Source of the DNA: Spirochaetia bacterium
GTDB lineage: Bacteria; Spirochaetota; Spirochaetia; UBA9216
Reading direction: 5' to 3'
DNA length: 64,000 nt
NCBI GenBank assembly: GCA_965140585.1
Contig: OZ223269.1
Span: 715,542 to 779,541, forward strand
A program made the position numbers and the translations under genes. The notes beneath the pieces were generated by a model that saw only the letters and a list, made by a program, of their open reading frames with translations, ran no database searches and was not told where the DNA came from. Positions 21,736-46,072 of this stretch are shown here, in pieces (the stretch's first letter is position 1; each line of letters begins with the position of its first letter).

Positions 21736-23154
<1,419 letters not shown>

Positions 23155-23194: not shown

Positions 23195-23234
23195 GAGCTG
23201 TCCGTAGTGTTACTTCGGACAGCTCTTTTAATTT
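23195..23234. terminator. Bidirectional intrinsic terminator between convergent gdhA and the ygeW operon
   Basis: GAGCTGTCCG-11 nt loop-CGGACAGCTC. Flanked by TTTT on the + strand and AAAA upstream, which gives a U-tract for the minus strand. Confidence 0.7.
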
Positions 23235-23244: not shown

Positions 23245-24444
23245 CTATATTAAAGATCTTAAAGATGACTTTTTAATAAGATCATGAATTCCTGAAACAG
23301 GATTCCTGACCTTGCTTAAAAAGATCATGGCAGCAATTATATAGGGTTTATACCCTGCTTCTATATAAGTTGTTTTTCTATACCTGTCAAATACAGATGC
23401 TGCTACCTCTCCATGTTCACAGCTTACACCGCTTATGTCTGCAGGCAGGCAGTGCATATAAACAGCCTTTCCATCTTTTGTCTTTCTCATCAGTTCTTCA
23501 CTGCATTCCCATGACATATAATCTTTGTTCTGTTCTAGACAGTTTTTCTCTAACTGAACCAGACCTTCCCGATCATTTTCACGAAACAGCTTGGTGCGTT
23601 TTTCCATTACGCTGAAAGGCGCCCAGCTTTTCGGGTACACAATATCAGCCCCTTCAAAGGCTTCTTCCATTGAGTTTGTGACATTAAAGCTTCCGCCGCT
23701 TTTGGTAGAAAATCCTTTTGCAATTTCAACGGTTTCATCTATTAGGTTATACCCCGGCGGATAAGCAAGACTCACATCCATTCCAAAACGGCTCATTAAC
23801 CCGATTACGCCCTGCGGAACAGAAAGAGGTTTTCCGTAGGATGGGGAGTAAGCCCAGGTCATTGCAACTTTTTTCCCCTTTAGCTGGTCAACACCGCCGA
23901 AGGTATTTATTAGGTGAAGTGTATCAGCCATAGCCTGGGTTGGATGGTCAAGATCGCACTGAAGGTTAACAAGTGCAGGTTTTGAAGGTATAATACCGTC
24001 CTTAAAATCTTCACTTAGAGATTTTGCAACCTCTGTCATGTAGGTATGTCCTTCACCTATGAAGATATCGTCTCTTATTCCGATTGCTTCTGTTAGAAAA
24101 CTAATCATACAAGCGGTCTCTCTGACTGTTTCACCGTGTGCTATCTGAGATTTCTGTTCATCAAGATCCTGTACCGTAAGACCCAGAAGGTTTGCAGCGC
24201 TGGCAAATGAAAACCTTGTTCGAGTGGAATTATCCCTGAAGATTGAAACAGCAAGACCGGAATCAAATATTCTTGGAGATATATTGCTTTTACGCAGCAG
24301 CCTGAGCAGTTCAGCAGTTTTAAAAACAGCATCAATTTCTTCGAATGTTTTATCCCAGGTGAGAAGAAAATCTCCTCCAAACATTTTAGACCAGTCAAGG
24401 CCGTTAAGTTCAGTCAGTAATTTTTTTATTTCCTTGTTCTCCAT
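23245..24444 (-). CDS. ygeW: YgeW-type knotted carbamoyltransferase
   Basis: 399 aa. Co-linear with E. coli YgeW (FRDNSTRTRFS.ASA.NLLGL, SQIAHGETVRETA.MISF, LVNLQCD.DHPTQ.MAD, HCLPADISGVSC). Last gene of the long minus-strand operon. Confidence 0.9.
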   Translation of the reverse strand: MENKEIKKLLTELNGLDWSKMFGGDFLLTWDKTFEEIDAVFKTAELLRLLRKSNISPRIFDSGLAVSIFRDNSTRTRFSFASAANLLGLTVQDLDEQKSQIAHGETVRETACMISFLTEAIGIRDDIFIGEGHTYMTEVAKSLSEDFKDGIIPSKPALVNLQCDLDHPTQAMADTLHLINTFGGVDQLKGKKVAMTWAYSPSYGKPLSVPQGVIGLMSRFGMDVSLAYPPGYNLIDETVEIAKGFSTKSGGSFNVTNSMEEAFEGADIVYPKSWAPFSVMEKRTKLFRENDREGLVQLEKNCLEQNKDYMSWECSEELMRKTKDGKAVYMHCLPADISGVSCEHGEVAASVFDRYRKTTYIEAGYKPYIIAAMIFLSKVRNPVSGIHDLIKKSSLRSLI

Positions 24445-24474
24445 CTTTATCCTCTCTTTCAGAAAATTCGTCTT

Positions 24475-25836
24475 TTAAAATTTATTAAGAAGTGCTGAAG
24501 AAATTTCCCTTGTTTTGAATGAAAGTTCATCTTCATCAAATCCTGTAAGTTCTCCTTTGCAGACGGTAATCTTTCCGTTAACTATTGTATATTTAGTTGT
24601 ATGATTATGACCGCAGAAAATAAGTGATGCGAGCGGGTCGGACTCTGAGCCTGCGTATTCCAGTCCTGAAATATCAAAAACTGCAACATCTGCAGCATAG
24701 CCCTGTTTAATATATCCGATAGTATCGTAATTAAGTGTTTTGGCTCCACCTGCAGAAGCGATACCGAAAGCCTCTTTGACTGTCAAACCGGATGCTCCGT
24801 ATTTGATTCTCTGCAGCATCAGAGCAGTTCTTATCTCACCCAGCATGTCGCAGCTGTCATTTGAAGCTGAACCGTCAACAGCAAGACTGACATTTATTCC
24901 ACGGTCAATCATCTCTCTGACTCGCGCTATTCCTGAGCCAAGACGCATGTTCGATGAAGGGCAATGACATATACTGCATCCGGAATCTTTGAGGTAAGAA
25001 AGTTCTTCATCATTGAAATGTATTCCATGGGCAAAAGAAACATCATGACCGGTAAAATCACAGCTTTTCATCAGCTCCAGTGGCCTTATTCCATGTTTAT
25101 TGATACAGAAATCATTCTCATCGTGGGTTTCGGCCAGATGAGTATGCAAAAGTACATTCTTCTCACGAGCAAGTAAGGCTGTTTCTTTCATTAGTTCTGT
25201 TGTCACTGAAAAAGGGCTGCATGGGGCCAGTATAATTCTCTGCATTGAATATTTATCAGCATCATGGAAATCTTTTATTACCCGTTCACTGTCTTTGATT
25301 ATTTCTGCACCTGTCTGTACCACTGAATCAGGAGGCAGGCCTCCATCCTTTCTGCTGAGCGACATGGAGCCTCTTGTGGGTGAAAAACGTAATCCCAGCT
25401 TTCCAGCTGCTTCAAACTGAAGCCCCATAATATCTCCGCTAAAGCCGGAAGGATAAAGATAATGGTGATCTGTTGAACATGTACATCCGGTTTTCATCAA
25501 TTCAGCAGCAGCGCAAAGTGAGGAATAATATACAGCATCAGAGTCAATATTCTTCCATTTTTCATAGAGAAAAACCAGCCATTCAAACAGTTCGGCATTC
25601 TGAACTTCCGGAAGGTTGCGAGTAAGGACCTGGTAGAAATGATGATGTGTATTCACAAACCCTGGAACCGCTATACAGCCGCTGCAGTCTATTATTTCAT
25701 GAGAAGGATAATGGGAAAAGTCCATGTCAGCTGTACTTATAACGGCCTCAATGGTATTTCCATTGATAATAAGGTTCACATCAGAATAAAGCTGTGATCC
25801 GTTGTATAAAGATTTAAGATTTTTCAGTATCAGCAT
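24475..25836 (-). CDS. TRZ/ATZ-family amidohydrolase (8-oxoguanine/guanine deaminase or chlorohydrolase-like)
   Basis: 453 aa. VPGFVNTHHHFYQ metal-binding motif. HTHLAETHDE. Downstream HGIHF...D also typical of this family. Confidence 0.75.
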   Translation of the reverse strand: MLILKNLKSLYNGSQLYSDVNLIINGNTIEAVISTADMDFSHYPSHEIIDCSGCIAVPGFVNTHHHFYQVLTRNLPEVQNAELFEWLVFLYEKWKNIDSDAVYYSSLCAAAELMKTGCTCSTDHHYLYPSGFSGDIMGLQFEAAGKLGLRFSPTRGSMSLSRKDGGLPPDSVVQTGAEIIKDSERVIKDFHDADKYSMQRIILAPCSPFSVTTELMKETALLAREKNVLLHTHLAETHDENDFCINKHGIRPLELMKSCDFTGHDVSFAHGIHFNDEELSYLKDSGCSICHCPSSNMRLGSGIARVREMIDRGINVSLAVDGSASNDSCDMLGEIRTALMLQRIKYGASGLTVKEAFGIASAGGAKTLNYDTIGYIKQGYAADVAVFDISGLEYAGSESDPLASLIFCGHNHTTKYTIVNGKITVCKGELTGFDEDELSFKTREISSALLNKF

Positions 25837-26737
25837 TTTTATCTCCGGTGGAAATGATAATCTCTTTTATCAGCCGAAGTGCAGTATTAAATCTGTACCT
25901 TGCGGTACTGCGCTGATCGTTAATGGGTTTTAAAAGGCTGGAATAAATTTCAACTGCACTGTCAATTTTTTTATGGTCTTCTGCAGGATTTATACCAATC
26001 AGCAGATCTTCAGCTTCCTCACTTCTTATTATCTGCGGACCGCATGCCCCGACTGCTATTCTTATATCTTCCAGAGATCCCTCAACCAGCTTCCATGCTG
26101 CTGCAATGTTCAGTTTGGATAATGCATTAGCAGCCCTTGTTCCGATTTTGATAAATCTCGTCTGTAATTCTGAATCATATGTCATGCTGATGCCGCGAAG
26201 AAGTTCACCTGCTTTAAGGTCGGTAGAACCCGGTCCTGTGATAAAATCATCTATCGCAATTTTCCTTATTGCTGTCCCGGCTTCACTGTTTTTTGTATTT
26301 ACTAATGAGATACATTCAATTTCAGTATCAAGTATATATAAAACAGGTAAGGAATCGGCGGCCGGACTTGCGTTGCATATATTGCCCGCAAGAGTCGCGG
26401 TATTTCGGATTCCCGGAGAGGCAATGTGCTTTAATGCTTCTACAAGAGGCGGAGGGGTATCACTGTGTTCAATCAGGTCGGACAGAACAACAGAAGCCCC
26501 GGCATAAAACAGCGAGCAGTCTTTTTCAATCACATCAAAATCTTTAATTCGTCCGGTATAGAAAATTTCAGAAAAATCTTGAATATTATTTTTTGAAGGA
26601 AATGAAGAAGACTGATTGAATATGGCATGACGTCTGACCATCAAATCTGTACCGCCTGATACAGGCACAAAACCTTTTTCGAGCAGAAGCAGTGCATCTT
26701 CTACATTTTTGGGTGAGAGATTCATTATTTCCGCCAT
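25814..26737 (-). CDS. Xanthine dehydrogenase family, FAD-binding subunit (set 1)
   Basis: 307 aa. CO-dehydrogenase flavoprotein-like N-terminus (VSGGTDLMV). Position in an Mo/2Fe-2S/FAD trio. Confidence 0.75.
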   Translation of the reverse strand: MAEIMNLSPKNVEDALLLLEKGFVPVSGGTDLMVRRHAIFNQSSSFPSKNNIQDFSEIFYTGRIKDFDVIEKDCSLFYAGASVVLSDLIEHSDTPPPLVEALKHIASPGIRNTATLAGNICNASPAADSLPVLYILDTEIECISLVNTKNSEAGTAIRKIAIDDFITGPGSTDLKAGELLRGISMTYDSELQTRFIKIGTRAANALSKLNIAAAWKLVEGSLEDIRIAVGACGPQIIRSEEAEDLLIGINPAEDHKKIDSAVEIYSSLLKPINDQRSTARYRFNTALRLIKEIIISTGDKNADTEKS

Positions 26738-27219
26738 ATGTGAGCTCCGTTTTCAGAGGCCTTTTTTACAGCTTCTATAATCATACTGTATCCAGTGCAG
26801 CGGCAGAGATTACCTGAAAGGCCTTCTTTTATTTGTTCACCGTCAGGAACCGGATTTTTTCTAAGCAGAGCAGCAGTTGCCAGAATAAAACCGGGAGTAC
26901 AGAATCCGCACTGCACAGCGCCGCATTGAGCATATGCTTCTGAAATTATCCGGAATTCCTCGGTTTTGCTGAATCCTTCGATAGTTATTATTTCATCGCC
27001 ATCTACTGCTGCCGCAGGAACGGTGCAGGAATTAACAAGCCTGCCGTTTCTGAAAACACTGCAGGCTCCGCATTCTCCCTCACCGCAGCCTTCCTTTACG
27101 CCCGTAAGTTGAAAATTATTCCGCAGAATATCAAGCAGCCGATCAGAAGGGCCGGCGGTTATTTCAATGTCTTTTCCGTTAAGATTAAATTTCAGGTTAA
27201 TTTTTACCTTGCTGTTCAT
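26725..27219 (-). CDS. Xanthine dehydrogenase family, [2Fe-2S] iron-sulfur subunit (set 1)
   Basis: 164 aa. CGEGECGACSV plant-ferredoxin cluster and CGFCTPG...CRCTGY second cluster. Confidence 0.85.
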   Translation of the reverse strand: MNSKVKINLKFNLNGKDIEITAGPSDRLLDILRNNFQLTGVKEGCGEGECGACSVFRNGRLVNSCTVPAAAVDGDEIITIEGFSKTEEFRIISEAYAQCGAVQCGFCTPGFILATAALLRKNPVPDGEQIKEGLSGNLCRCTGYSMIIEAVKKASENGAHIWRK

Positions 27220-29354
27220 GACTGTTCCTCGAGCATTTCCGGTGTTACAGGTATGCTGTACTGTATTTTTCCCACGGCCTGTGATACAGCTGCTGCTACA
27301 GCGGCAGCAGGACCTTCGTTTGGAAGTTCACCTGCAGCCTTGGCCCCAAAGGGGCCGCGGGGGTATGGGTTATCCATAAAATGGCATTCTGTCTCAGGAA
27401 AATCCATTGTCGTCGGGATGGTATAGTCTGTGAAAGAGGCCTGAGCGAATTGCCCTTTATGAAGTACCATGTTCTCTATTGTTGAATACCCGAAAGCCTG
27501 GGCTGTTCCTCCATGCATCTGGCCCTTCAGTATGTTTATGTCGATCGGTGTTCCTACATCATAAACCGCCCAGGAACCCTTTATTTCAATCTGCCTGGTT
27601 AAACTGTCAATTTCGACTTCTACAACATTTACTGACCAGCTATACCCCGGATAAGCATCACCGCTGAATGTCTTTTCATCCCAAACAAGTTCTGCTGGAT
27701 GCATATACCGCTTTTCTACGGTAATTTCATCTGAATAATTTCTTACAGAATCTTTGAGTTTTAATGATAGTTCAGCTGCAGCATCAGCGAGAAGCTTGCC
27801 GACAATCATTACCGTGCGGGAAGCTACCGTCGGCCCAGAATCAGGAACCTCAGCAGTATCAGGCTGCTGAAAAACAATGTTACAAAGCGGGATATTCATT
27901 GTTTCAGCAACGATCTTTCTAAGAGTGGTTGATGCTCCCTGACCCATTTCAACATTTGAAACCAGCACTGTTATTACGGGTTTCTCAGGGTCGGAATCGG
28001 CCGGAGAAGCTTTCAGCCTTACGAGACTTTTTATGATTTCCTGTTCACCGCTTCCGGTAAAGGCGCCTCCGTGTGCAGCATATGAAATACCTATGCCGCG
28101 TATCTTATGGCTTTGCAAATTTTCCGGCTTTGAATAACGTTCATATTTTTCTGTATATCCGGATACTTTATTAACCTTCTCAAACATCTGTTTAAGAAGT
28201 ATATCATCGCGGAAAAGCCCTCCGGTAACCGACAGGTCTCCTTTTTTAAGCAAATGATTTAATTTAAACTCGGATGGATCCTGTTTAAGTGCCTTTGCGA
28301 CTGCATACATATTCATCTCTGCGGCAAACAAAGCCTGCGGGCCTCCAAACCCTCTGAACGCTCCTGAAGGCACATGATTTGTTTTCATGGTTCTGCCGCG
28401 GACATTCAGATTCTCTATATTGTAAGCTCCGCTGCAGATAAAAACTGCTCGTTCAAGAACTACCCCCGATAGAGTCTGAAATGCCCCGGCGTCAATTTTT
28501 GTATCAATATCAAGTGCTGTAATCCGGTTATCTTTATCTACCGCTGTACGGATACGTATGACTGAAGGATGGCGTTTTGGAGTGACGGTCATGTCATACC
28601 TGCGGTCAAGTACTATTCTAACAGGCGAACCGGATTTTATTGCTGCGGCTGCCGCCTGTGATGCCAGTATGGAAGGATAATCCTCCTTGCCTCCAAAGGC
28701 TCCTCCCGTGACAGACTGGATAATCCGTATCTTCTCGGGGGCAATTTTGAAACTGGCCGCAAGTGAGTTTTTTACGTAGTAGGGACATTGCAGGGAGCCG
28801 TAGATCATCAGGGAGCCGTCATTATAGACTGCAGTCATTGCCTGGGGTTCCATATATGCCTGTTCCTGAATACCTGTACTGAATTCATTAACAAATATTT
28901 TCCATGCCGAACTGAAGCTTTTTTCAGGATCACCTTTTTTGATATGATAGTCATTGAACCACTCTACAGCTTCACTGATTCCGGAAATAGCGTCTGTCCG
29001 GATATAATCAATTTTAATATCCGAAGCCAGTTGCCTGCATATGTTCCGGTCAGGTCCTGATACAACACATAAGGTCTGGCCGTAGAAGGAAATTTCCTTT
29101 GCAGCAAAAATCGGCCAGTCCTGTGCAACAATGCTTGCTCTGTTCAGGCCGTCTATATCATCTGCTCCAGTTATGAAATAACCTTCAGGCAGTTCGGGGT
29201 AATGGATAGATTCAATAGTTCCGCATTGAATGGAGGAGGCTACCGGTATGCCCCAGGTAAGTCCTTCAAAATCGAGATCCGCGGTGTACTTCGCTTTTCC
29301 TGATGCTTTAGAAGCGGCATCTGTTCTGATTACCGGATTACTGATTTTGTGCAT
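27216..29354 (-). CDS. Xanthine dehydrogenase family, molybdopterin-binding large subunit (set 1)
   Basis: 712 aa. Aldehyde oxidase/xanthine DH a/b hammerhead and MoCo-binding regions (GGAFGGK, SGAFRGFGGPQ). Confidence 0.85.
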   Translation of the reverse strand: MHKISNPVIRTDAASKASGKAKYTADLDFEGLTWGIPVASSIQCGTIESIHYPELPEGYFITGADDIDGLNRASIVAQDWPIFAAKEISFYGQTLCVVSGPDRNICRQLASDIKIDYIRTDAISGISEAVEWFNDYHIKKGDPEKSFSSAWKIFVNEFSTGIQEQAYMEPQAMTAVYNDGSLMIYGSLQCPYYVKNSLAASFKIAPEKIRIIQSVTGGAFGGKEDYPSILASQAAAAAIKSGSPVRIVLDRRYDMTVTPKRHPSVIRIRTAVDKDNRITALDIDTKIDAGAFQTLSGVVLERAVFICSGAYNIENLNVRGRTMKTNHVPSGAFRGFGGPQALFAAEMNMYAVAKALKQDPSEFKLNHLLKKGDLSVTGGLFRDDILLKQMFEKVNKVSGYTEKYERYSKPENLQSHKIRGIGISYAAHGGAFTGSGEQEIIKSLVRLKASPADSDPEKPVITVLVSNVEMGQGASTTLRKIVAETMNIPLCNIVFQQPDTAEVPDSGPTVASRTVMIVGKLLADAAAELSLKLKDSVRNYSDEITVEKRYMHPAELVWDEKTFSGDAYPGYSWSVNVVEVEIDSLTRQIEIKGSWAVYDVGTPIDINILKGQMHGGTAQAFGYSTIENMVLHKGQFAQASFTDYTIPTTMDFPETECHFMDNPYPRGPFGAKAAGELPNEGPAAAVAAAVSQAVGKIQYSIPVTPEMLEEQS

Positions 29355-29355
29355 A

Positions 29356-30522
29356 TTAAACTCCGTCTAATTCAAGCCCTTTCATCGCTCCGTCAATATC
29401 TTTTAAGCCGCTGCCTGTTACAAGAAGAACCACAGTGGCCCTGTCAGATATATGTTTTCTGACAGAAAGAAGTCCGGCGAGTACAGAGGCTGATGATGGC
29501 TCTGCAAATAATCCTGTGGATGATGCTAGTTTTTTCTGAGCTTTCAGAATTTCAGCGTCTGAAACATCTATCCCGACTCCGGAATGCTGTATCAGTTTTT
29601 TCATGGCAAGATAACCGTTTCGGGGGATATCAACTGAAATTGAATCAGCAATCGTGGCGGATGAAACAGGGTCTGAAAAATCTCCGTTTTTTAAAGCTCT
29701 GTTTATGGCATTTGAACCCTCGGCCTGAACACTGTGAATAACCGGAATTTTTTCTGAAAGCCCCAGACGGATTAGATCTTCAAAACCTCTGTACAGTCCG
29801 CCAAGAATTACTCCGTCTCCTACCGGAACAAAGATATAGTCAGGAACCTTTCCGAGCTGAAGAAATATTTCAAGCGCTGCTGTTTTTTTACCTGCGAGTG
29901 TGAGGGGATTAAAAGCAGTATTCCTGTTCAGACCTCCGTTTTTCCTCGTGTAAGCGATTGACTGATCAAAGGCCAGATCATAAGTGCCGTCAACAAGAGT
30001 TACTTCTGCTCCATACTGAAGGGACTGAACCATTTTTGCTTTAGGTGCAGATTTAGGTATAAAGATTTTTATTTTCTGTCCTGCTGATGCTCCGATTCCG
30101 GACATTGAGGATGCCGCATTTCCTGTCGAAGCAACCGTTATTTCATTTATCCTGTATTTTTTAGCAAATGCCGAAACAAGGTAGGACGCACGATCTTTAA
30201 GGCTTCCGGTAGGATTCAGTGTATCGTCTTTGATAAACAGTTCTTCAAGATTAAGTTCTTTGCGTAGATTTTCCGGTTTCCATAGCGGAGTGCTGCCCAC
30301 CGGAGCGGGAGGGAAATATTTTTTTTCTACAGGCAGAAGTCTGTGAATGAAACCCTGGCGGTCCTTTGTATTTGTATCTGTTTTTCCTTCAAAGGTGGTT
30401 TCAAGAACTCCTTTAAGCGGTCTGTTTTCAGGCTGCCTTGAAGTGCATGAAGGACATAGATATACATCAGGCTTAATGTCATAGGTTTTACCGCAGTCAG
30501 TGCATCTGTAATAGAATTTCAA
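29356..30522 (-). CDS. Threonine-synthase-like PLP-dependent enzyme (fold type II) with N-terminal zinc ribbon
   Basis: 388 aa. CTDCGKTY...CPSC ribbon. PTGSLKDRASY PLP-lysine motif. Sits where ygeX is in the E. coli cluster but is not YgeX-like. Confidence 0.65.
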   Translation of the reverse strand: MKFYYRCTDCGKTYDIKPDVYLCPSCTSRQPENRPLKGVLETTFEGKTDTNTKDRQGFIHRLLPVEKKYFPPAPVGSTPLWKPENLRKELNLEELFIKDDTLNPTGSLKDRASYLVSAFAKKYRINEITVASTGNAASSMSGIGASAGQKIKIFIPKSAPKAKMVQSLQYGAEVTLVDGTYDLAFDQSIAYTRKNGGLNRNTAFNPLTLAGKKTAALEIFLQLGKVPDYIFVPVGDGVILGGLYRGFEDLIRLGLSEKIPVIHSVQAEGSNAINRALKNGDFSDPVSSATIADSISVDIPRNGYLAMKKLIQHSGVGIDVSDAEILKAQKKLASSTGLFAEPSSASVLAGLLSVRKHISDRATVVLLVTGSGLKDIDGAMKGLELDGV

Positions 30523-31739: not shown

Positions 31740-31756
31740 TCTAAAAACTCCTGATA

Positions 31757-32647: not shown

Positions 32648-33947
32648 AGTACCTCCGGTGAAGATCCGCAGCGGCTTTCCTGATTTCTGTCCGGAGACTG
32701 CTTTCATAAGTAAAATTGATGTTTCCGCTGCTGTACAGTATATTTCCACGTGCAATGGTCATATATGTGTTTCCGCCCTTTGAACCAAAAATTAAATGTC
32801 CAATCAGATTATCCGCGTTTATTTCAGTCTGTGGAATATAATCCAGTACGGCAATATCTGCATCTTTCCCCTCTTCAAGTGTCCCTGAAGAAGGAAAATA
32901 ATCCTGAACAAGTTTTGCTGTTTCTCCAAAAAAAGTGTCATGAAGCTTTTTCATGTCTTCGGTATATCCTCTGCCGAGCAGATACATTGAACGAAGCGAT
33001 GCAATCATATCAAAACTCATACCGTCAGTTCCCAGTGTGAAAAAAGGAAGAACGGAACGATCCATTTTTCCTACACGGTTGTTAGCATTTGATTCGGGGT
33101 TGGTAACGATATGGGGTTTAACCTCATGCAGTATTTCATAGTCTTTATGAGAAAGGTGAACACAATGTGCCAGAATTGACTTTGAATTAATCAGTCTGTA
33201 ACGGTTAAGCCGGTCTACAGGGCCGTAATATCCGCTTTCCAGGCAGAAATCAAGATCGGCCTTGTCTTCGCCGCAGTGAATGTGTATAGGAATTTCGCCC
33301 AGGTATTTTGAGATCACTTCTGCTGTCTCGGCAAGTGCAGAATTGCTGAGAGTAAAGTTTGCATGAAAACCAAGCATTCCCTTGATGTGAGAGTCATGTG
33401 TGTGACGCTGAAGAAAATCAAGATTCTCCTCTACATGTGAAGGAACCTTATCCATACCGTAACGTCCGCTTGTTTCATAGCACAGTACTGCCTTTATACC
33501 GGCTAGTTTTACAGCTTTTTTAATTACATCAAGGCTGCCTTTTACAAAACTCATCGAAGCATGATGATCGAAAATACAGGTGACTCCATGTTTGACAGCA
33601 TCAAGTATTCCGGCCACGGCACTGTAGTAGACAGACTGCTCATCATGAACCTTATCCAGAGGCCACCAGTAATTTGAAAGTATTTCCGAGAAATTCCTCG
33701 GTGTACTTAGTGGCGACAGGCCTGTAGCAAGCGATGAATAAAGGTGAGTATGCGGATTTGTCAGACCGGGGAGAAGCAGGCGTCCCTGCAGGTCGAAAAT
33801 GTCGGTTTCATTAACATCAGGTTTGATAGAATCGGAGTCTGCAGAAATTTTACTGATGCTTCCGTCTTCAATCAGCAATGATCCGTTCTTTATGAATAAC
33901 GTTCTATCTGCGATGACGCAGTTTTTAAGTAGTATCTTCTTTTTCAT
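32640..33947 (-). CDS. ssnA: SsnA-type aminohydrolase
   Basis: 435 aa. Co-linear with E. coli SsnA (NYWWPLD...VYYS...GVTCIFDHHAS..F..GSL, HCGED, LGTDGMSFDM, C-terminal RKAAADLHRRY). Confidence 0.85.
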   Translation of the reverse strand: MKKKILLKNCVIADRTLFIKNGSLLIEDGSISKISADSDSIKPDVNETDIFDLQGRLLLPGLTNPHTHLYSSLATGLSPLSTPRNFSEILSNYWWPLDKVHDEQSVYYSAVAGILDAVKHGVTCIFDHHASMSFVKGSLDVIKKAVKLAGIKAVLCYETSGRYGMDKVPSHVEENLDFLQRHTHDSHIKGMLGFHANFTLSNSALAETAEVISKYLGEIPIHIHCGEDKADLDFCLESGYYGPVDRLNRYRLINSKSILAHCVHLSHKDYEILHEVKPHIVTNPESNANNRVGKMDRSVLPFFTLGTDGMSFDMIASLRSMYLLGRGYTEDMKKLHDTFFGETAKLVQDYFPSSGTLEEGKDADIAVLDYIPQTEINADNLIGHLIFGSKGGNTYMTIARGNILYSSGNINFTYESSLRTEIRKAAADLHRRYYG

Positions 33948-33948
33948 C

Positions 33949-36267
33949 TTAAACCCTGTTAAGTTTTTTCCATACCTTTTCCGCAGTAAACGGGGTCTGG
34001 GTAAGTCTTATTCCAACAGCGTCAAATACAGCATTTGCAATTGCCGGTGCCGGACCGTTAAGAGCAATCTCCCCGACGCTTTTTGCACCGAGGGGCCCGG
34101 TTTCTTCAAAACTGTCCGCAATAATTGTAACCATCTCCGGGGCATCTGCTGCATTGAAGATTTTATAGGCTCCGAAGTTCGGATTAGTCATACGGCCTTT
34201 TTTATTGAACAGATATTCTTCTGTAAGAGCATATGAAATACCGTTCATTACGGCTCCTTCTATCTGACCTTCTGCAAGCATCGGGTTCAGTGCTGTTCCG
34301 CAGTCCATGCCTGTTACAAATTTAACAACTTTAATTTCACCGGTTTCCGTGTCAACAGTTACTTCAGCAAACTGTGCGGTGAAAGGGGGCGGTGATTCAC
34401 TGCCGACATATGATTCGGTTGCCTGAATCTGGAACTGACCTGATGTGTAAAGTCTGTAGGCGCAGATTTCGCCGTAGGTTATACTTTTCTTTCCGTTATC
34501 TGCTGTTACTATTCCTGATTCCGCCTTGAGTTTATCGACCGGTATTCCAAGCATTTCAGAGGCTGCCTGCATAATCTGACTTAAAACAGATTGAGCGCAT
34601 TTTTTAACAGCATTCCCGGTTACATATGTAGTCGATGACGCATAGGCTCCGGTATCAAAGGGAGTCGTGTCGGTATCTGATGAGAGGACGATAAACTCTG
34701 CTGTTTCAGTGTGCAGTACTTCAGCGGCAATCTGAGCAAGGATGGTATCAGAACCCTGACCGATATCAGTTGCGCCGGTCTGCAGGTTGAAGGAACCGTC
34801 CTCATTCATCTTGATATAGCAGCTTGCCATATCAATCTCGGGAATTCCGGACCCCTGCATGCTTACCGAGGCACCGACGCCGCTTACAAGGCTTCCGTTT
34901 TTTATTTTCTTTCCGCGTTTGTTTTTCCAGTCTATTTCAGATGCGCCCTTTTTAATGCACTCCTCAAGTGCGCAGGAGCGAATGTACTGACTGACACCTT
35001 CTTTTCCCTCGCCGAGGGCTTCAAAAACCTTTGATGTTTCACCTGATTTAATATGCCATTTCATTACATAGTCGAGAAAATCTATGCCGCAGCGTCTTGA
35101 TATCTCATCTATATGCTGATTCAGGGCAAAATAGCCCTGGGTGGCTCCGTAGCCGCGGTATGCGCCGCCGACGGGAAGGTTAGTATATACAGACCTTCCC
35201 GTGAACGCCATATTTTCAATTTTATTGTAGAGCGGCAGTACCTTTGCGCCTGCGTTTGAAAGAACAGTAAGAGCATGCGGTCCGTAGGCTCCCGCGTTCA
35301 TCAGATCGTCGATTTCCAGAGCGGTTATTTTACCGGATTTCTTAAAACCGATTTTCACACGGCTCCGCATTGGATGTCTTGTTCTGCTGCTTATGAAAAC
35401 TTCTTTTCTTGAAAGAATAATACGAACGGATCTTTTAAGATCCCAGGATATCCAGGCAGCTACAGGTTCAAGAAAAACTTCCTGCTTTCCGCCGAAACCT
35501 CCACCGACACGCGGTTTAATAACCCGTATCTGTTTCAGTTCGCGGCCGCAGACTCTTCCGGTAATGCGTCTTACATGATAGGGAACCTGTGTGGCTGAAA
35601 CTATTACCAGCCTGCCGCGGCTGTCAAAATATGTGATTACAGAGTGGGGTTCCATGGCGCAGTGGGATGCATACTGCATACTGTAGCTGTCTTCGAGTAT
35701 TTCATCAGCAGAGTCGAATCCCTTTTCCATATCACCGAAACCGATAATAACTTCAGCAGCAAGGTTGCTTTCAGGCTTATAAGTTACCGGAATGGCAGGG
35801 TATTCGTCATCAAAATGAAGCCTGGGTGCATCGGCTTCCATCGCTGATTCAATATCAAAAAGCGGGGCTTTTTCCTGTAATTCAACATTAATCAGGTTAA
35901 CAGCTTTTTCGGCAGTTTCAGGATCATCGGCTGCGACAGCAGCTATACGATCGCCGCAGAATCGGACATAACGATCAAACATCCTGCAGTCATACGGGGA
36001 TGGTTCAGGAAAACCCTGACCTGCTGTCGTGTACAGTGTGGAAGGGGTATTTCCATAATGATATATCCCCTGTACACCATCAGCTTTTTCAGCTTCAGAA
36101 GTGTCTATTGATATGATTTCACCGAAGGCTATTTTGGAATAAAGAAAGGCAACATAAACAGGATTATCAGTCTTATAGTCATCCGTGTAGTGTTCTGTCC
36201 CGCAAGCAAGTGAAAGTGCATCATATTTAGGGTGAGATACAGAGGCTTCTTTAAAACTATGCTTCAT
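33949..36267 (-). CDS. Xanthine dehydrogenase family, molybdopterin-binding large subunit (set 2)
   Basis: 772 aa. Paralogous to 27216..29354 (GGGFGGKQE, GGAYRGYGATQG). Confidence 0.85.
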   Translation of the reverse strand: MKHSFKEASVSHPKYDALSLACGTEHYTDDYKTDNPVYVAFLYSKIAFGEIISIDTSEAEKADGVQGIYHYGNTPSTLYTTAGQGFPEPSPYDCRMFDRYVRFCGDRIAAVAADDPETAEKAVNLINVELQEKAPLFDIESAMEADAPRLHFDDEYPAIPVTYKPESNLAAEVIIGFGDMEKGFDSADEILEDSYSMQYASHCAMEPHSVITYFDSRGRLVIVSATQVPYHVRRITGRVCGRELKQIRVIKPRVGGGFGGKQEVFLEPVAAWISWDLKRSVRIILSRKEVFISSRTRHPMRSRVKIGFKKSGKITALEIDDLMNAGAYGPHALTVLSNAGAKVLPLYNKIENMAFTGRSVYTNLPVGGAYRGYGATQGYFALNQHIDEISRRCGIDFLDYVMKWHIKSGETSKVFEALGEGKEGVSQYIRSCALEECIKKGASEIDWKNKRGKKIKNGSLVSGVGASVSMQGSGIPEIDMASCYIKMNEDGSFNLQTGATDIGQGSDTILAQIAAEVLHTETAEFIVLSSDTDTTPFDTGAYASSTTYVTGNAVKKCAQSVLSQIMQAASEMLGIPVDKLKAESGIVTADNGKKSITYGEICAYRLYTSGQFQIQATESYVGSESPPPFTAQFAEVTVDTETGEIKVVKFVTGMDCGTALNPMLAEGQIEGAVMNGISYALTEEYLFNKKGRMTNPNFGAYKIFNAADAPEMVTIIADSFEETGPLGAKSVGEIALNGPAPAIANAVFDAVGIRLTQTPFTAEKVWKKLNRV

Positions 36268-36745
36268 TATCAGCCTCCTTCATTCTTGCTGCAGACAACT
36301 GAACCGCCTCAATTATTTTTTTATAGCCAGTGCATCTGCATAAGTTGCCGTCGAGAGCTTTTTTAATTTCACTTATTCCGGGCTCTGGATTATGCATCAA
36401 AAGCGCGTATGTACTCATTATTTGTCCGGGTGTACAGAAACCGCACTGAATTGCTCCTGCCTCTGCAAAGGCTGTCTGTATGGGATGCGGATGGTGAACG
36501 CTTCCGATCCCCTTAACCGTGATTATTTCACGTTCCGAAGCAGTGGCGGCAAATACAGCACAGGAATTAACCGTTCTGCCATCCATGATTACGACACAGG
36601 CTCCGCAGTCGCCGCTTTCACAGCCGTTATGGACTTCGGTATGTCCGTTATCACGCAGAACCTTAAGCAGCGTTTCGCCGGGCTTGAAACTGTACGATTC
36701 TTTTTTGCCGTTGATTATAAAATCCATTTCGATAAAATCAGACAT
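36257..36745 (-). CDS. Xanthine dehydrogenase family, [2Fe-2S] subunit (set 2)
   Basis: Start taken at MSDFIEMDFIINGKK (RBS GGAGGT, 7-nt spacer; the track ORF begins earlier at 36865). CESGDCGACVV and CGFCTPG...CRCTGY. Confidence 0.8.
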   Translation of the reverse strand: MSDFIEMDFIINGKKESYSFKPGETLLKVLRDNGHTEVHNGCESGDCGACVVIMDGRTVNSCAVFAATASEREIITVKGIGSVHHPHPIQTAFAEAGAIQCGFCTPGQIMSTYALLMHNPEPGISEIKKALDGNLCRCTGYKKIIEAVQLSAARMKEADNEA

Positions 36746-37505
36746 TGCTGCTACCTCCGGCATTTGCGAGAGTCCTTTTAAGTTCAACCATAAGACGGTG
36801 TTTAAGATATTCTGCTCCGGTGCCTCTTTCATCGCTGAATCCGGCCTGTGAGTCAATCTGTTCAATAATTTCTTCAGGTTTACCGCTGCAGAATAAATTG
36901 CCGCCGGAAATGCCGGTTACTGCCGCGTTCAATTTTCCATCTGATGCTGCTCCAGCAGAGACTGTAAAGAAGGGGTAATCGAAATCGGTCCGGATATATC
37001 TGAAATAGCTGCCCTTTAAGTTTTTACGGCTTACAAGTATTTCGCTTATAATTCCTGATTTTCTAAGTTCACTGCTTCTGTAATAGTCTTTTGCTGAAAC
37101 AGGAAATTCAGAACCGCTGATTCGGAATCCGGCATCTGAAACAAGAAGCGGGCCGGTGATATCGGACCACTTCGGAGAGGCATAGATACTTCCGCCAGCT
37201 GTTATCCGGTTGCGAAGCGGAGTAGCCGCAGCATTGCCGACAGAAGCTGTGAAAATATTTTCCGCCTCTATTTCTGACATAAACTTTGAAATATCAGTAT
37301 AGGTGCTGTTGGCACCGATTCTGATAATGTCATCAGTAATTTCAATTGTATTCATCTGTGTGATATGTTTTAAATCAATCAGACCGGGAGTGTTGAGTGG
37401 AGATTTGAAAAGAAAGGTGCCCCCGCCATGAAGTTTGTAACCAGCGGAAAATAGTTCAACTGCAGCTGAAAGATTATCCGGAAAATACCATTTGAGATCT
37501 TTCAT
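36738..37505 (-). CDS. Xanthine dehydrogenase family, FAD-binding subunit (set 2). First gene of the ~14 kb minus-strand operon
   Basis: 255 aa. Starts MKDLKWYFPDNLSAAVELF...GGGTFLF, which is CO-DH flavoprotein-like. Confidence 0.75.
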   Translation of the reverse strand: MKDLKWYFPDNLSAAVELFSAGYKLHGGGTFLFKSPLNTPGLIDLKHITQMNTIEITDDIIRIGANSTYTDISKFMSEIEAENIFTASVGNAAATPLRNRITAGGSIYASPKWSDITGPLLVSDAGFRISGSEFPVSAKDYYRSSELRKSGIISEILVSRKNLKGSYFRYIRTDFDYPFFTVSAGAASDGKLNAAVTGISGGNLFCSGKPEEIIEQIDSQAGFSDERGTGAEYLKHRLMVELKRTLANAGGSSNV

Positions 37506-37641
37506 AATATTTATTGTAAAGGCAAAAAAGAAATAAAAGCAAGTAAAAACCTTTATCAGTGCAAATTGTCAAATTAAAAATAATAACATCAAAAAATAAC
37601 ATCGTTGACAAAGCGTTAAAGCGCCGGTAGGATTACTGTTA

Positions 37642-39570
37642 ATGGCCGCAACCAATATTCTGACAAGAATCATAAATGCTTATTCCAAAAGAAAAAATAT
37701 CTGGGAATTTGACTACGACAGCCTGCTGGAATTTATTCATCAGCTTATTTTAAACGACGAAAATGACCGGTATTCAGTTTTTGAGACTAATACCGATGAT
37801 ATTCTGACTGCAATGCTTATTGACCTTGAAAAATCAGGTGACTGTAAGCTCGTTTATGAGGGCAGCCGGATATCATTGATTCAGAACACCAGTTTTCAGG
37901 CCACGGCAATTGAAGCGGAATTTGCCAAAGTTGAAGCAAATTCGGACTATCCCTTTCCTACCGAAAACAGTATTAACATCAGAATACCTGAAGACAGTCT
38001 CTTTAACCTGAACATGCCTGATGAAATGACAATAGTCCTCAATTCTTCAAAGGATAATCAGCTGTACCGGCTTAAGTTCAGCAACGGTATTAATAACATA
38101 ATTGCTCCGGGCGCACAGATTAAAAACCGGCTTCTTTCACTTGCGGTTAACAAGATGCGAAATTATCTGGTTCATAAGAATAATTCCAATTATATCTACC
38201 ACAAGATGATTCCCCTGTTTAAGCAGAATACAAGGGCTCTGGGAGAACTTATCAAGATGATCCAGGGAAACCCCGGCAGAGCGGTAACCAATATCCGTAA
38301 GCCTGATGAGTTTATTTTCACATTCTGGACCCAGCTTTCTGCCTTTATCAGGAAAGAACTTGCAGACAAAGAAAATAAAACGAGTCAGGATGAGGGTATT
38401 CTTCATTCTTCCATCCTTGTTCACGGTTATCTCCTTTATTACAAGGGCATAGTTCAGCGGCAGAAACTGAAGGAAAGTGCCCTTAAAAGTGTAGGGGATC
38501 AGCTCAAGAAGGAACCCTTTTATTACTCAATCAGCGATATTTATGATTTTAAAGATAAATCAGGTCCCTACCTTAACAGCAAATTCTCAAAAAAAGACCT
38601 TCATGATTTTATTGAAGGTAAGCTTAAGATTAAGGAAGATGAAATACTTCCTGAGCTTGTTAAGATTAAAACTGTAGACAAGAAGATATATTACATTCAT
38701 AAGTCTTCAATTCTGACTCTTGCACACCGGAAGGTTGCGAATGCTCATGATTTTTACCGTAAGAAAATCCTTGATAACTGGATTGATGTGATGAATGAAT
38801 ACAGAATGCTTCCTGCCATGACGAGTGATGACGTATATCATGCAGAACTTGTGAAGGACATAAAAAAGGAAGACCCCCTTCTTTTTGCTCTTTTAAGTTA
38901 CGAACTTCTATATCTTGCAATGCAGGAATCCAAGAATATCAAACTGAAGGCGGTAGTCCAGGGCTGGATGGAGGAAAAGGCCGTTCATATGAAGCCGATT
39001 TCTGTTATTCTGGATCTCCGTAGAAAAGATCTGTATTCAGTAGCCAGAAGTTCCATGCCGTTCTGGATGAGTTTTTCTTTTCTCAGAAAGCTTGTATTCA
39101 TGTTTCGAGGTAACCGCAAGCGTAAGGTTAAAAAGTCGGCTTCTGAAATTAATGAATCTAAAATTACTATTTCAGATTCAAAACATGTACCAAGGTCTAC
39201 AGCCTCAGGTTCTGTCAAAAAGGTTCCCTCTCAGGATTATAAAAAGGGTGTTGAACTGCTGAAGCTGAGATATAACTATACAAGCTTTACAATTGAAAAT
39301 ACCCTTACCGAACTTCAGGAGGAATGGAATCCTCTTCTCGATTATGAGGCACGAAATAACCTGGTTAAGGATGTTAAAAATATGGTCCGCGACTATATGA
39401 GAAAAATTCTCAGGGAAACAGCCTTTGCAGTCCCTGATCCGGAGCGTGTTGAGAATATTGCTGAGCTGCTTTCAAGAAACAGTGCCTTCAATGTTATAAA
39501 AAAGAAGGAAAAATTCAGGCAGTATCTGTCATTGTATATAATAAAAGTTCTCAACGATACAAAACCCTGA
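37642..39570 (+). CDS. Large Lys-rich protein of unknown function, no recognisable domain
   Basis: 642 aa ORF diverging from the xdh operon, on the same strand as hyuA and immediately upstream of it. No motif I can assign. Confidence 0.5.
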   Translation: MAATNILTRIINAYSKRKNIWEFDYDSLLEFIHQLILNDENDRYSVFETNTDDILTAMLIDLEKSGDCKLVYEGSRISLIQNTSFQATAIEAEFAKVEANSDYPFPTENSINIRIPEDSLFNLNMPDEMTIVLNSSKDNQLYRLKFSNGINNIIAPGAQIKNRLLSLAVNKMRNYLVHKNNSNYIYHKMIPLFKQNTRALGELIKMIQGNPGRAVTNIRKPDEFIFTFWTQLSAFIRKELADKENKTSQDEGILHSSILVHGYLLYYKGIVQRQKLKESALKSVGDQLKKEPFYYSISDIYDFKDKSGPYLNSKFSKKDLHDFIEGKLKIKEDEILPELVKIKTVDKKIYYIHKSSILTLAHRKVANAHDFYRKKILDNWIDVMNEYRMLPAMTSDDVYHAELVKDIKKEDPLLFALLSYELLYLAMQESKNIKLKAVVQGWMEEKAVHMKPISVILDLRRKDLYSVARSSMPFWMSFSFLRKLVFMFRGNRKRKVKKSASEINESKITISDSKHVPRSTASGSVKKVPSQDYKKGVELLKLRYNYTSFTIENTLTELQEEWNPLLDYEARNNLVKDVKNMVRDYMRKILRETAFAVPDPERVENIAELLSRNSAFNVIKKKEKFRQYLSLYIIKVLNDTKP

Positions 39571-39614
39571 ATATAAAACAATTTCAGGTTGCCTGATTAA
39601 TATATAGGTATTAG

Positions 39615-39650
39615 AATGTAATTGTTCACGCTAACATCGTGAATGTAATT
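39615..39650 (+). promoter_or_regulatory. Operator-like element: ATGTAATT direct repeats flanking the palindrome TTCACG-N7-CGTGAA, just upstream of the hyuA RBS
   Basis: AATGTAATTGTTCACGCTAACATCGTGAATGTAATT. The RBS GGAGGT is at 39656 and the ATG at 39667. Confidence 0.4.
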
Positions 39651-39666
39651 TTTCGGAGGTAATACA

Positions 39667-41070
39667 ATGAAGACCCTTATTAAAAACGGTACAATTGTAA
39701 CCGCCAGTGACACCTATAAGGCTGATGTCCTGATTGACGGCGAGAAGATTGCCATGATCGGTACAAACCTTCCTTCAGAAGGCGCTGAAGTTATTGATGC
39801 TTCAGGAAAATACCTTATACCCGGTGGCATTGATGCGCATACCCACCTGGATATGCCATTCGGCGGTACAATAACAGCTGACGATTTCTACACAGGACAG
39901 TCAGCAGCTGCATTCGGCGGCACTACTACCCACATTGACTTCGCTTTACAGCAGAAAGGTCAGACCCTGAAACAGGGTGTTGAAATGTGGCAGGAAAAGG
40001 CTAAAGGCAATACCATAATCGATTATGGTTTCCATATTGCAATAACCGATCCTACAGAAGAATCTATCAATGAAATTTCCACCCTCAATGATATCGGTGT
40101 TTGTTCTCTGAAGGTTTTTCAGGCTTACAAAGGCGCTTTTATGGTAGATGATACTGCGCTTTATAAGGCAATGGAGAAAACTGCAGAGGCTGATATAATG
40201 CTAATGACACACTCCGAGAACGGAGATGCCATTGCGCTGCTTACTGAAAAGCTTGTTGCTGAAGGTAAACTGGAGCCAAAGTATCATCTTGTTGCTCACC
40301 CGCGTGAAATTGAAGGCGAAGCTACTGCAAGAGCGATTGCCATGGCTGCAATAACAGGCGCAAAACTCTACGTTGTACACATGTCCTGCAGTGATTCTAT
40401 CGAACAGATGGCTATCGGACGTTCAAAGGGTTACAAGGTAATGGGTGAAACATGTACTCAGTATATGTTCAAGTTTGAAGACGATATGCGTGTTCCCGGT
40501 TTTGAAGGTGCCAAATGGGCATGCGGTCCGCCCGTAAGAACTCCGGAAGATGCAAAATACATCTGGGAAGCCCTCAGAAACACAACACTTCAGTGTGTTT
40601 CTACTGATCACTGCTCTTTCAACTATGAAGGCGGAGTTGACGGTAAGAAAGCAGGAAAGGAACTGGGTAAGCCGGGCTGGCATATGATTCCTAACGGAAT
40701 TCCCGGCATTGAAGACAGAATGATGGTTATGTACCATAACGGTGTTAATTCCGGTAAAATCGATCTTAACCGTTTTGTTGCAATTACATCAACAAATACA
40801 GCAAAGGCTATGGGCCTCTATCCAAGAAAGGGTACAATTTCAGTCGGTTCAGATGCTGATATTGTATTATGGGATCCTGAGAAGACCCATACAATCTCTG
40901 CCAAAACACATCATATGAATGTTGACTACAACGCATACGAAGGCATGGAAATCAAAGGAATGCCTGTGAGAACAATCATCCGCGGAACTACCGTTACCGA
41001 CGGAGATAAACTCTGTGTTGAGAAGGGCTTTGGACAGTACCTCATGAGAAAAGGTCCGCAGATAGTTTAA
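39667..41070 (+). CDS. hyuA: D-hydantoinase/dihydropyrimidinase
   Basis: 467 aa. GGIDAHTHLDMPFGGT metal-binding motif and cyclic amidohydrolase architecture. Confidence 0.85.
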   Translation: MKTLIKNGTIVTASDTYKADVLIDGEKIAMIGTNLPSEGAEVIDASGKYLIPGGIDAHTHLDMPFGGTITADDFYTGQSAAAFGGTTTHIDFALQQKGQTLKQGVEMWQEKAKGNTIIDYGFHIAITDPTEESINEISTLNDIGVCSLKVFQAYKGAFMVDDTALYKAMEKTAEADIMLMTHSENGDAIALLTEKLVAEGKLEPKYHLVAHPREIEGEATARAIAMAAITGAKLYVVHMSCSDSIEQMAIGRSKGYKVMGETCTQYMFKFEDDMRVPGFEGAKWACGPPVRTPEDAKYIWEALRNTTLQCVSTDHCSFNYEGGVDGKKAGKELGKPGWHMIPNGIPGIEDRMMVMYHNGVNSGKIDLNRFVAITSTNTAKAMGLYPRKGTISVGSDADIVLWDPEKTHTISAKTHHMNVDYNAYEGMEIKGMPVRTIIRGTTVTDGDKLCVEKGFGQYLMRKGPQIV

Positions 41071-42664: not shown

Positions 42665-42790
42665 AAACAGGAGTATACTTAAAAACAGCAATTTTTAATA
42701 GAGAGGAAAATATTCTGAATTATTAACCAAATGTTGGTTTGCGAAAATTCGAAACTTCATTATATAATATCCATATATGAGGAGAGGAAT

Positions 42791-44074: not shown

Positions 44075-44097
44075 AAAACAATAAACCTTTTAACCAG

Positions 44098-46071: not shown

Positions 46072-46072
46072 G

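Follow-up and report, generated by a model that had tools for sequence, protein, structure and literature searches.

A 64-kb stretch of a Spirochaetia genome (assembly GCA_965140585.1, contig OZ223269.1, positions 715,542 to 779,541 of the forward strand), referred to below as the window and numbered from its first letter, carries a 12-gene operon and a divergent unit with hyuA. Together they probably make up the reductive (2,8-dioxopurine) cluster for anaerobic purine and urate degradation in a variant form found in spirochaetes. Of the enzyme families that the published pathway requires, only YgeX and carbamate kinase are missing from the window, and the block is conserved in related loci. 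Both observations support the role in anaerobic urate and purine catabolism that an earlier sequence-only reading of this DNA had proposed. The chief parts of the variant are an enzyme derived from threonine synthase (ThrC) in the place of YgeX, a UacX flavoenzyme without an iron–sulphur (Fe-S) domain, and an orphan winged-helix gene.

The reductive pathway of urate degradation was established in two studies published in 2025 (PMC12507026; bioRxiv 10.1101/2025.04.24.650524). XdhD-YgfM, named 2,8-dioxopurine dehydrogenase (DOPDH) in C. sporogenes, reduces urate to 2,8-dioxopurine, YgfK reduces the ring, and SsnA and HyuA open the two rings. The two ureido groups are removed by YgeW (together with carbamate kinase, or by UacY instead) and by YgeY, and YgeX converts the resulting 2,3-diaminopropionate to pyruvate (PMC12507026; bioRxiv 10.1101/2025.04.24.650524). 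In C. sporogenes a separate xanthine dehydrogenase (XDH) feeds hypoxanthine and xanthine into urate, as shown genetically (bioRxiv 10.1101/2025.04.24.650524). The chemistry of XdhD/DOPDH, YgfK/UacX, SsnA, HyuA, YgeW, YgeY and YgeX was worked out in studies of E. coli, C. difficile and C. sporogenes. The occurrence of SsnA in Spirochaetota has already been reported by Li et al. (PMC12507026).

Operon layout and predicted pathway steps

The ORF list of the window contains 12 co-directional open reading frames (ORFs) on the minus strand, extending from 37505 to 23245 over 14,261 bp; the G+C content of the window is about 42%. Encoded proteins were assigned by profile searches with NCBIfam models under their curated cut-offs and with Pfam, and by tblastn with E. 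coli K-12 proteins. The gene order of the operon is exactly the one given by the sequence-only reading. The same reading placed hyuA directly across from the operon; the two are in fact separated by a plus-strand gene for a 642-aa protein that it did not mention. The features of the locus are listed below in the direction of operon transcription, followed by those on its two flanks.

36738-37505, minus strand: FAD2, flavin adenine dinucleotide (FAD) subunit of molybdenum (Mo) hydroxylase set 2 (PF00941); first gene of the operon
36257-36745, minus strand: FeS2, 2Fe-2S subunit of set 2 (Fer2 and Fer2_2)
33949-36267, minus strand: Mo2, molybdopterin subunit of set 2, XdhD-type by likeness to XdhD, 772 aa
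32640-33947, minus strand: SsnA-like amidohydrolase (two SsnA models are the best families)
31757-32647, minus strand: UacX-type DHO_dh flavoenzyme, 296 aa (PF01180)
30519-31739, minus strand: YgeY, M20 peptidase-type ureido (carbamoyl) hydrolase (NF009555)
29356-30522, minus strand: ThrC-derived pyridoxal-phosphate (PLP) enzyme in the YgeX position (PF00291)
27216-29354, minus strand: Mo1, molybdopterin subunit of set 1, 712 aa (likeness to bovine XDH/xanthine oxidase)
26725-27219, minus strand: FeS1, 2Fe-2S subunit of set 1 (pucE/XdhC-type models, 46% to XdhC)
25814-26737, minus strand: FAD1, FAD subunit of set 1, full length (PF00941 and PF03450)
24475-25836, minus strand: 8-oxoguanine deaminase-type TRZ/ATZ amidohydrolase (NF006055)
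23245-24444, minus strand: YgeW, knotted carbamoyltransferase (NF005538, TIGR03316)
23196-23226, no strand assigned: 10-bp G+C-rich hairpin where ygeW and gdhA converge with their 3' ends; the operon probably ends here
37506-37641, no strand assigned: A+T-rich divergent intergenic region of 136 nt between FAD2 and the 642-aa gene
37642-39570, plus strand: orphan gene for a 642-aa protein, upstream of hyuA and co-directional with it
39667-41070, plus strand: HyuA, D-hydantoinase/dihydropyrimidinase (TIGR02033)

Gene starts were judged from in-frame start codons and the sequence upstream of them. Two of the mechanically called ORFs are too long: UacX (called as 31757-32755) most likely starts at the ATG at 32647, which is preceded by GGAGG, and FeS2 (called from 36865) at the ATG at 36745, with GGAGG 8 nt upstream. 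With these revised starts each junction in the operon is either an overlap, as in the 8 nt shared by the SsnA-like and UacX genes, or a gap of 1-30 nt. The 136-nt region between the ATG of FAD2 and the divergent 642-aa gene presumably holds the promoters of both units. It includes a sigma-70-like site, TTGACA-17-TAGGAT, at 37605-37633 on the plus strand; such sites are no commoner in the window than in shuffled sequences, and consensus scans of the window for promoters and terminators gave counts no different from shuffled sequence and were uninformative. The hairpin at the operon end, the only one judged convincing, was read by eye as GAGCTGTCCG-(11 nt)-CGGACAGCTC, with TTTT after it on the plus strand, and was not listed by the simple terminator scan because of the 8-nt loop limit of the latter. 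Control of the operon by a riboswitch or other RNA was rejected, as no Rfam family reached its gathering score in the window.

The arrangement of the twelve genes lends good support to their being a single transcription unit, as which they are probably expressed. Their division into two or more separately regulated operons, for instance one with the DOPDH, SsnA, UacX, YgeY and PLP enzyme genes and another with the XDH, deaminase and YgeW genes, appears unlikely. A modular origin is suggested by the position of MocA between the PLP enzyme and Mo1 in other phyla and by the absence or different location of the deaminase and YgeW there, and promoter-like hexamers do occur inside the genes. However, the overlaps and narrow gaps at all junctions leave no space for regulatory regions, internal promoter- and terminator-like sites are no commoner than in shuffled sequence, and two other spirochaete genomes, at 50-85% protein identity, have the genes in the same order.

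Purines would enter the pathway through the deaminase and the first Mo-hydroxylase trio. The TRZ/ATZ amidohydrolase passes the cut-off of the 8-oxoguanine deaminase model (NF006055, 559 bits against 532), with 27% identity to E. coli GuaD, and is predicted to convert 8-oxoguanine or guanine to urate or xanthine. The set-1 trio (Mo1, FeS1, FAD1) is read as a canonical xanthine dehydrogenase, which would oxidise hypoxanthine and xanthine to urate, because Mo1 keeps every active-site residue of bovine xanthine oxidoreductase (XOR). The best solved relatives of Mo1 are bovine XDH and xanthine oxidase (XO), at 216 bits, and in a HMMER alignment to chain C of bovine XO (numbering offset 570) the residues Q767, E802, R880, R912, F914, F1009, T1010 and E1261 are all retained. 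Orthologues of Mo1 from four other loci keep the same active-site residues. FeS1 finds its best models in pucE, XdhC and the glyceraldehyde dehydrogenase gamma subunit (E about 1e-49, all below cut-off) and is 46% identical to E. coli XdhC by tblastn; FAD1 has both PF00941 and PF03450 (CO_deh_flav_C) and is XdhB-like (E 1e-35). Orthology of Mo1 to XdhA was considered and rejected, the identity being 23%.

The set-2 trio is read as a three-subunit DOPDH (urate 6-dehydroxylase / 2,8-dioxopurine dehydrogenase) because Mo2 carries an XdhD-specific insertion with the equivalent of Glu606. This residue of XdhD was proposed by Li et al. to orient urate for C6 dehydroxylation (PMC12507026). Mo2 matches E. 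coli XdhD (38%, 488 bits) better than it does XdhA (32%, 381 bits), and shares with XdhD both the insertion, ALGEGKEG, and the motif MQGSGI; the insertion is missing from XdhA and Mo1. All 11 Mo2 orthologues examined have the XdhD-type LGEG(K/T) insertion. Mo2 has Gln at the position of E802 and no Arg at that of R880, and its closest solved relative is 4-hydroxybenzoyl-CoA reductase. FeS2 displays Fer2 and Fer2_2 from residue 47 of the long ORF, with eight Cys in two cluster motifs. FAD2 has PF00941 (FAD_binding_5, 67 bits) as its sole domain, lacks CO_deh_flav_C, and is similar in length to E. coli YgfM (255 against 259 aa); its orthologue in one of the two spirochaete loci, L001, is 23% identical to YgfM over 266 aa. 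As the split equivalent of E. coli XdhD-YgfM, the trio would take the C6 oxygen off urate to give 2,8-dioxopurine. The set 1 and set 2 steps combined would amount to a redox-neutral shift of the oxo group from C6 to C8, and NAD(H), acting via the FAD subunits, is plausible as the electron donor. Which step each trio catalyses is inferred from conserved residues and sequence likeness.

The subsequent opening of the rings and removal of the ureido groups can be laid out along the remaining genes. UacX, a flavin mononucleotide (FMN) enzyme, would reduce 2,8-dioxopurine, and the adjacent SsnA-like amidohydrolase would open the six-membered (pyrimidine) ring. Two SsnA models are the best families for the latter (E 1.5e-110 and 8e-98, the next family following at E 1e-44), and it aligns co-linearly with E. 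coli SsnA over residues 30-437 of 442 at 32% identity. The same divergent SsnA-like clade is present in WOR-3, Synergistaceae and Neomarinimicrobiota at 42-52% identity, and a UacX or YgfK gene directly follows SsnA in every related locus that reaches past SsnA. HyuA, encoded on the other strand, would open the hydantoin ring to yield 2,3-diureidopropionate; it exceeds the cut-off of TIGR02033 (572 bits against 393) and is co-linear with E. coli HyuA at 35% identity. YgeW would remove one ureido group by phosphorolysis, releasing carbamoyl phosphate, and YgeY the other by hydrolysis, leaving 2,3-diaminopropionate. Both are safely above their cut-offs: YgeW scores 683 bits against 453 for NF005538 and 672 against 500 for TIGR03316, with residues 4-396 aligned to profile positions 2-394 of 396, and YgeY scores 476 bits against 321 for NF009555. 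YgeW is 62% identical to its E. coli counterpart and co-linear with it over residues 3-380 of 396, and YgeY 48% over residues 10-398 of 403. The near co-linearity of YgeW, YgeY and SsnA with the E. coli proteins, noticed in the sequence-only reading, is thus borne out by tblastn; in the profile searches that it called for, YgeW, YgeY and HyuA pass their cut-offs, and SsnA comes out as the best family but remains under the threshold. The final step, from 2,3-diaminopropionate to pyruvate and ammonia, would fall to the ThrC-derived PLP enzyme in the role of YgeX.

The ThrC-like enzyme and UacX

The PLP enzyme of the operon had been recorded as ThrC-like in the sequence-only reading, and its standing in the place of YgeX went unremarked. 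It belongs to PF00291 (228 bits), retains the Schiff-base lysine motif S-x-K-D-R and the PLP-binding motifs, and finds its best matches among threonine synthase models and structures, while falling below every threonine synthase cut-off (164.5 against 167.1 for TIGR00260; 191 against 303 for NF006050). The window contains no YgeX orthologue by tblastn with E. coli proteins. The only match of the ThrC-like enzyme itself to E. coli YgeX has 21.6% identity over 153 aa, on which ground its identification as a YgeX orthologue was rejected.

We compared the enzyme with four solved threonine synthases, those of Aquifex, Bacillus, Mycobacterium and Thermus. Five residues identical in all four, T88, N154, S155, R160 and N188 in T. 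thermophilus numbering, are replaced here by A136, T202, A203, T208 and D236. We take the five residues, from Thermus enzyme–analogue structures, to line the pocket for the substrate phosphate, an assumption that a literature search did not confirm. Across 121 family members A136, T202, T208 and D236 are invariant, and position 203 is occupied by Ala in 109 and by Gly in 12. Public names of the homologues are "threonine synthase" or "pyridoxal-phosphate dependent enzyme", and those with a named source come from metagenome-assembled genomes (MAGs) of Spirochaetales, WOR-3, Acidobacteria and Marinimicrobia.

The genomic context of the family follows the urate pathway. Of the 12 loci in which the surroundings of the ThrC-like gene were read, 11, from at least five lineages, have it among urate-pathway genes, the exception being locus L024; no YgeX homologue is present in those 11 urate-type loci. 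One cluster, with an E. coli-type SsnA (61%), a fused XdhD (43%), YgfK and YgeW, has the ThrC-like gene between ygeY and ygeW, which is the exact place of ygeX in E. coli. These observations lead us to propose, from gene position and the lack of YgeX in those loci, that the ThrC-like enzyme is a functional replacement of the diaminopropionate ammonia-lyase YgeX. A direct elimination of urea or carbamate from a ureido-alanine intermediate by the same enzyme is less likely.

It is very unlikely that the gene encodes an ordinary threonine synthase that merely sits in the operon, with a YgeX for diaminopropionate encoded elsewhere. The best profile and structure matches are indeed to threonine synthases, the cut-off of TIGR00260 is missed by only 2.6 bits, homologues are so annotated, and the ygeX search covered the 64-kb window. 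Such a role is at odds with the change of all five positions identical in the solved enzymes, with the fixation of four of the replacements throughout the 121 members and the restriction of the fifth to Ala or Gly, and with the urate-type context of 11 of 12 loci, which are themselves free of YgeX homologues.

Three loci have a second PALP protein of 486-492 aa beside the ThrC-like gene (L017, 17853-19313; L018, 12466-13944; L024, 6398-7861), one of them, L024, being without urate genes. The second protein displays no BLAST similarity to either YgeX or the ThrC-like enzyme, and the window has no such gene.

UacX is the other enzyme in which the operon departs from described systems. The DHO_dh domain (PF01180, 114 bits) is the sole domain of the 296-aa product, which is identical to the public gene call P0135; it contains only three Cys and no Fe-S domain. 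Many homologues at 55-62% identity have fused 4Fe-4S domains, and in some related loci YgfK stands in place of UacX beside SsnA. In C. difficile a UacX of the DHO_dh family replaces YgfK; the assays of that enzyme used reduced viologen as donor and followed the reconstitution of its Fe-S clusters (PMC12507026). By analogy we propose that UacX of the operon is a 2,8-dioxopurine reductase that replaces YgfK. Taken together, an unrecognised family of ThrC-derived terminal C-N lyases, replacing YgeX non-orthologously, and an Fe-S-less UacX, which would imply an undescribed electron supply, make up a proposal whose chances we regard as evenly balanced. Users of the lyase family may include many uncultured anaerobes of Spirochaetota, WOR-3, Neomarinimicrobiota, Acidobacteria and other groups.

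Related loci, alternative substrates and surrounding genes

Fifteen loci were recovered when species-representative genomes were scanned with the SsnA-like protein, and their ORFs were compared with the proteins of the window and of E. coli. The closest locus belongs to a Spirochaetia MAG (94%), and the others to Spirochaetales, WOR-3, Synergistaceae and Neomarinimicrobiota. Two spirochaete loci, L001 and L002, have an identical gene order, the 642-aa gene and hyuA included, with HyuA in the same position and 100% and 85% identical. Elsewhere an order recurs, in whole or in part, of FAD2-FeS2-Mo2-(HyuA-like amidohydrolase)-SsnA-(UacX or YgfK)-YgeY-(OTC-like carbamoyltransferase)-PLP-(MocA)-Mo1-FeS1, and an Acidobacteria locus has the YgeY-carbamoyltransferase-PLP-Mo1 part of it. 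Since both Mo sets and the ThrC-like gene recur across loci, they are not peculiar to the genome of the window.

Eight loci from Neomarinimicrobiota and unclassified MAGs (L005-L009, L011, L012 and L015) form a distinct variant. They have YgfK where the spirochaetes have UacX, a HyuA-like amidohydrolase inside the operon, and an OTC-like carbamoyltransferase (about 34% to YgeW) that replaces true YgeW. Two of them contain carbamate kinase between two OTC-like genes (L006, 14717-15832; L007, 18505-19620). In the Acidobacteria locus L017 (15216-17856) the Mo1-type trio precedes a gene for a 209-aa protein without any recorded domain, and then DUF4213/DUF364, YqeB-like XdhC_CoxI (36% to YqeB of E. 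coli) and NTPase genes. All four could encode maturation factors, and none of them occurs in the window.

The orphan 642-aa protein encoded upstream of hyuA matches no Pfam or NCBIfam model. Only 14 homologues were found, all named ones being from Spirochaetales or Spirochaeta MAGs, and the gene is syntenic in both spirochaete loci. Its AlphaFold model (pLDDT, the predicted local distance difference test score, 79) contains one or more winged-helix domains, and no full-length structural match to the model was found. The protein might conceivably bind DNA or act as a regulator. The most divergent homologue (33%, locus L020) is also encoded upstream of a hydantoinase-like amidohydrolase gene, in a different context that includes Oxidored_FMN, Pyr_redox and aminotransferase genes.

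It is highly improbable that the cluster degrades, in place of urate, a different N-heterocycle (nicotinate, for example, or a pyrimidine or hydantoin), which the Mo enzymes would hydroxylate and for which UacX, HyuA and YgeY would form a reductive pyrimidine-like branch: the UacX and HyuA families are best known from reductive pyrimidine catabolism (DHO_dh/PreA-like and dihydropyrimidinase models), the surroundings of the 33% homologue look to be of that kind, and the nearest solved relative of Mo2 is 4-hydroxybenzoyl-CoA reductase, but YgeW and YgeY pass equivalog cut-offs of families whose sole known role is in the urate pathway, Mo2 has the XdhD-specific insertion, Mo1 the full purine-specific XOR pocket with E802 and R880, the operon includes an 8-oxoguanine deaminase gene, and UacX is swapped in related loci for YgfK, the established 2,8-dioxopurine reductase.

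Several points nonetheless weigh against the assignment to reductive urate degradation and its parts. Mo1 is below all NCBIfam cut-offs for XDH equivalogs (best pucD, 314 against 784), Mo2 is likewise below the NCBIfam cut-offs (636 against 780), and the SsnA-like protein misses those of both SsnA models (370 against 444 for NF005540 and 328 against 455.5 for TIGR03314). The replacement of YgeX has as its sole basis the position of the gene and the absence of YgeX from the loci concerned. UacX lacks both an Fe-S and an NAD(P)H domain, and the operon contains no partner gene that would account for its electron supply. The apparent pyrimidine or hydantoin context of the 33% homologue of the 642-aa protein means that the hyuA unit may not be dedicated to urate. 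Finally, the absence from the window of carbamate kinase, a urate or xanthine permease, a molybdenum cofactor cytidylyltransferase and YqeB/YqeC/SelD indicates that part of the system is encoded elsewhere. By tblastn with E. coli queries the window contains nothing like YqeA, YqeB, YqeC, MocA, YgfK, YgeV or purine permeases, and none of the window ORFs scanned with Pfam and NCBIfam has an AA_kinase domain; the same scans turned up no SelD-type family, selD not having been queried directly. SelD, YqeB and YqeC are the proteins that would point to selenium-dependent Mo hydroxylases.

The lack of carbamate kinase in the window, pointed out in the sequence-only reading, is therefore upheld by both tblastn and domain scans. 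Its value as a distinguishing trait is not, as an unlinked kinase is known in C. sporogenes and Collinsella. Liu et al. report carbamate kinase elsewhere in the genome in three of 39 strains, C. sporogenes and two Collinsella, and three more strains of the 39 without both carbamate kinase and YgeW (bioRxiv 10.1101/2025.04.24.650524). The absence was accordingly rejected as a novelty on account of the first three strains.

Several genes around the locus have functions of possible relevance to nitrogen and carbon flow. At 17296-18543 on the minus strand, 4.7 kb beyond ygeW, lies a gene of the allantoate amidohydrolase/N-carbamoyl-amino-acid hydrolase family (NF006769, 465 bits against 452), the product of which could, judging by its family, cleave ureido intermediates. 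The plus-strand gene at 18731-21691 encodes an unusual 986-aa protein combining a response-regulator receiver with PPDK_N (phosphoenolpyruvate-utilising, ATP-binding) and having no close NCBIfam family. It is adjoined by the gene for an NADP-glutamate dehydrogenase (21766-23154), which could assimilate the released ammonia. The one-carbon (C1), glycine and lipoate functions of the window are reminiscent of classical purine fermentation: genes for FolD and formate-tetrahydrofolate ligase are located at 1358-4029 on the plus strand, those for LipA and LipB at 41131-42691 on the minus strand, directly adjoining hyuA, and two genes for glycine-cleavage P-protein subunits at 61879-63953 on the minus strand. 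The adjacency of the lipoate genes to hyuA is kept in L001 and L002. After the lipoate genes comes an ordinary complete glycogen cluster (42731-53621, plus strand) with GlgC, branching enzyme, debranching enzyme, phosphorylase, a weakly cyclomaltodextrinase-like gene and GlgA. A 739-aa ORF at 55332-57551 on the plus strand encodes an unusual fusion, in which a phosphate acetyl/butyryltransferase domain is joined to an incomplete acetate-kinase domain.

Comparison with known systems

It was not until 2025 that the anaerobic urate pathway was solved, and then in gut Proteobacteria and Firmicutes alone. The locus and its marine and sediment relatives present the pathway in a single operon along with its predicted feeders, the xanthine dehydrogenase of canonical type and the deaminase of 8-oxoguanine type. 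The step from diaminopropionate to pyruvate appears to point to a different enzyme family, mislabelled as threonine synthase in annotation; if this is true, recognition of the ThrC-like lyase would improve the prediction of purine degradation in metagenomes. What is already known comprises the pathway itself, UacX as a substitute for YgfK, two Mo hydroxylases with distinct roles, and an unlinked carbamate kinase. Not yet described are the ThrC-derived enzyme in the YgeX position, UacX without an Fe-S domain, and the 642-aa winged-helix orphan. The locus offers two concrete enzymes of note, the ThrC-like lyase and the Fe-S-less UacX, and reveals no new kind of system.

The E. coli cluster is arranged as xdhABC-ygeV-ygeWXY-hyuA-yqeA ... 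ygfK-ssnA-ygfM-xdhD (PMC12507026). The locus shares with it YgeW, YgeY, HyuA, SsnA, an XdhD-type Mo subunit accompanied by a short FAD subunit like YgfM, a second XDH-family trio, and a deaminase of the guanine type. The operon genes are packed here in one compact unit, whereas in E. coli several units are spread across about 25 kb. Separate Fe-S and Mo subunits make up the XdhD equivalent, UacX takes the place of YgfK and the ThrC-derived enzyme that of YgeX, and the window is without yqeA, yqeB, yqeC, mocA, ygeV and the permeases. As its second trio the locus has one of the canonical XOR type, in which Mo1 is 23% identical to XdhA and not its orthologue. The possession of two Mo sets, which the sequence-only reading had counted among the differences from E. 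coli, is common to both, as E. coli has xdhABC and xdhD-ygfM within the same 25 kb; what really differs in this respect is that both sets lie in one operon here and that the second is of the XOR type.

Clostridial systems resemble the locus in other features. As in C. difficile, a DHO_dh-family UacX is used instead of YgfK. The C. difficile enzyme was Fe-S reconstituted and is thought to be ferredoxin-dependent, whereas UacX here has the DHO_dh domain only and three Cys. C. difficile further differs in having UacY where the locus has YgeW, and an XdhD without an FAD subunit, while both trios here include one. C. sporogenes is similar in its two Mo hydroxylases with distinct roles, XDH and DOPDH, and in its unlinked carbamate kinase. 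YgeX is kept in the clostridia. The enzyme that stands in its position here shares with ThrC the fold-type II family and matches to solved ThrC at a similarity level of about 30-35%, and differs from it in five residues conserved in threonine synthases, in scores below the curated cut-offs and in its urate-catabolism context. The set-1 trio, for its part, has only 216 bits to bovine XDH and takes the three-subunit bacterial form, yet agrees with the bovine and Rhodobacter xanthine oxidoreductases in the eight active-site residues of Mo1 and, with separate 2Fe-2S and FAD subunits, in the same chain of cofactors.

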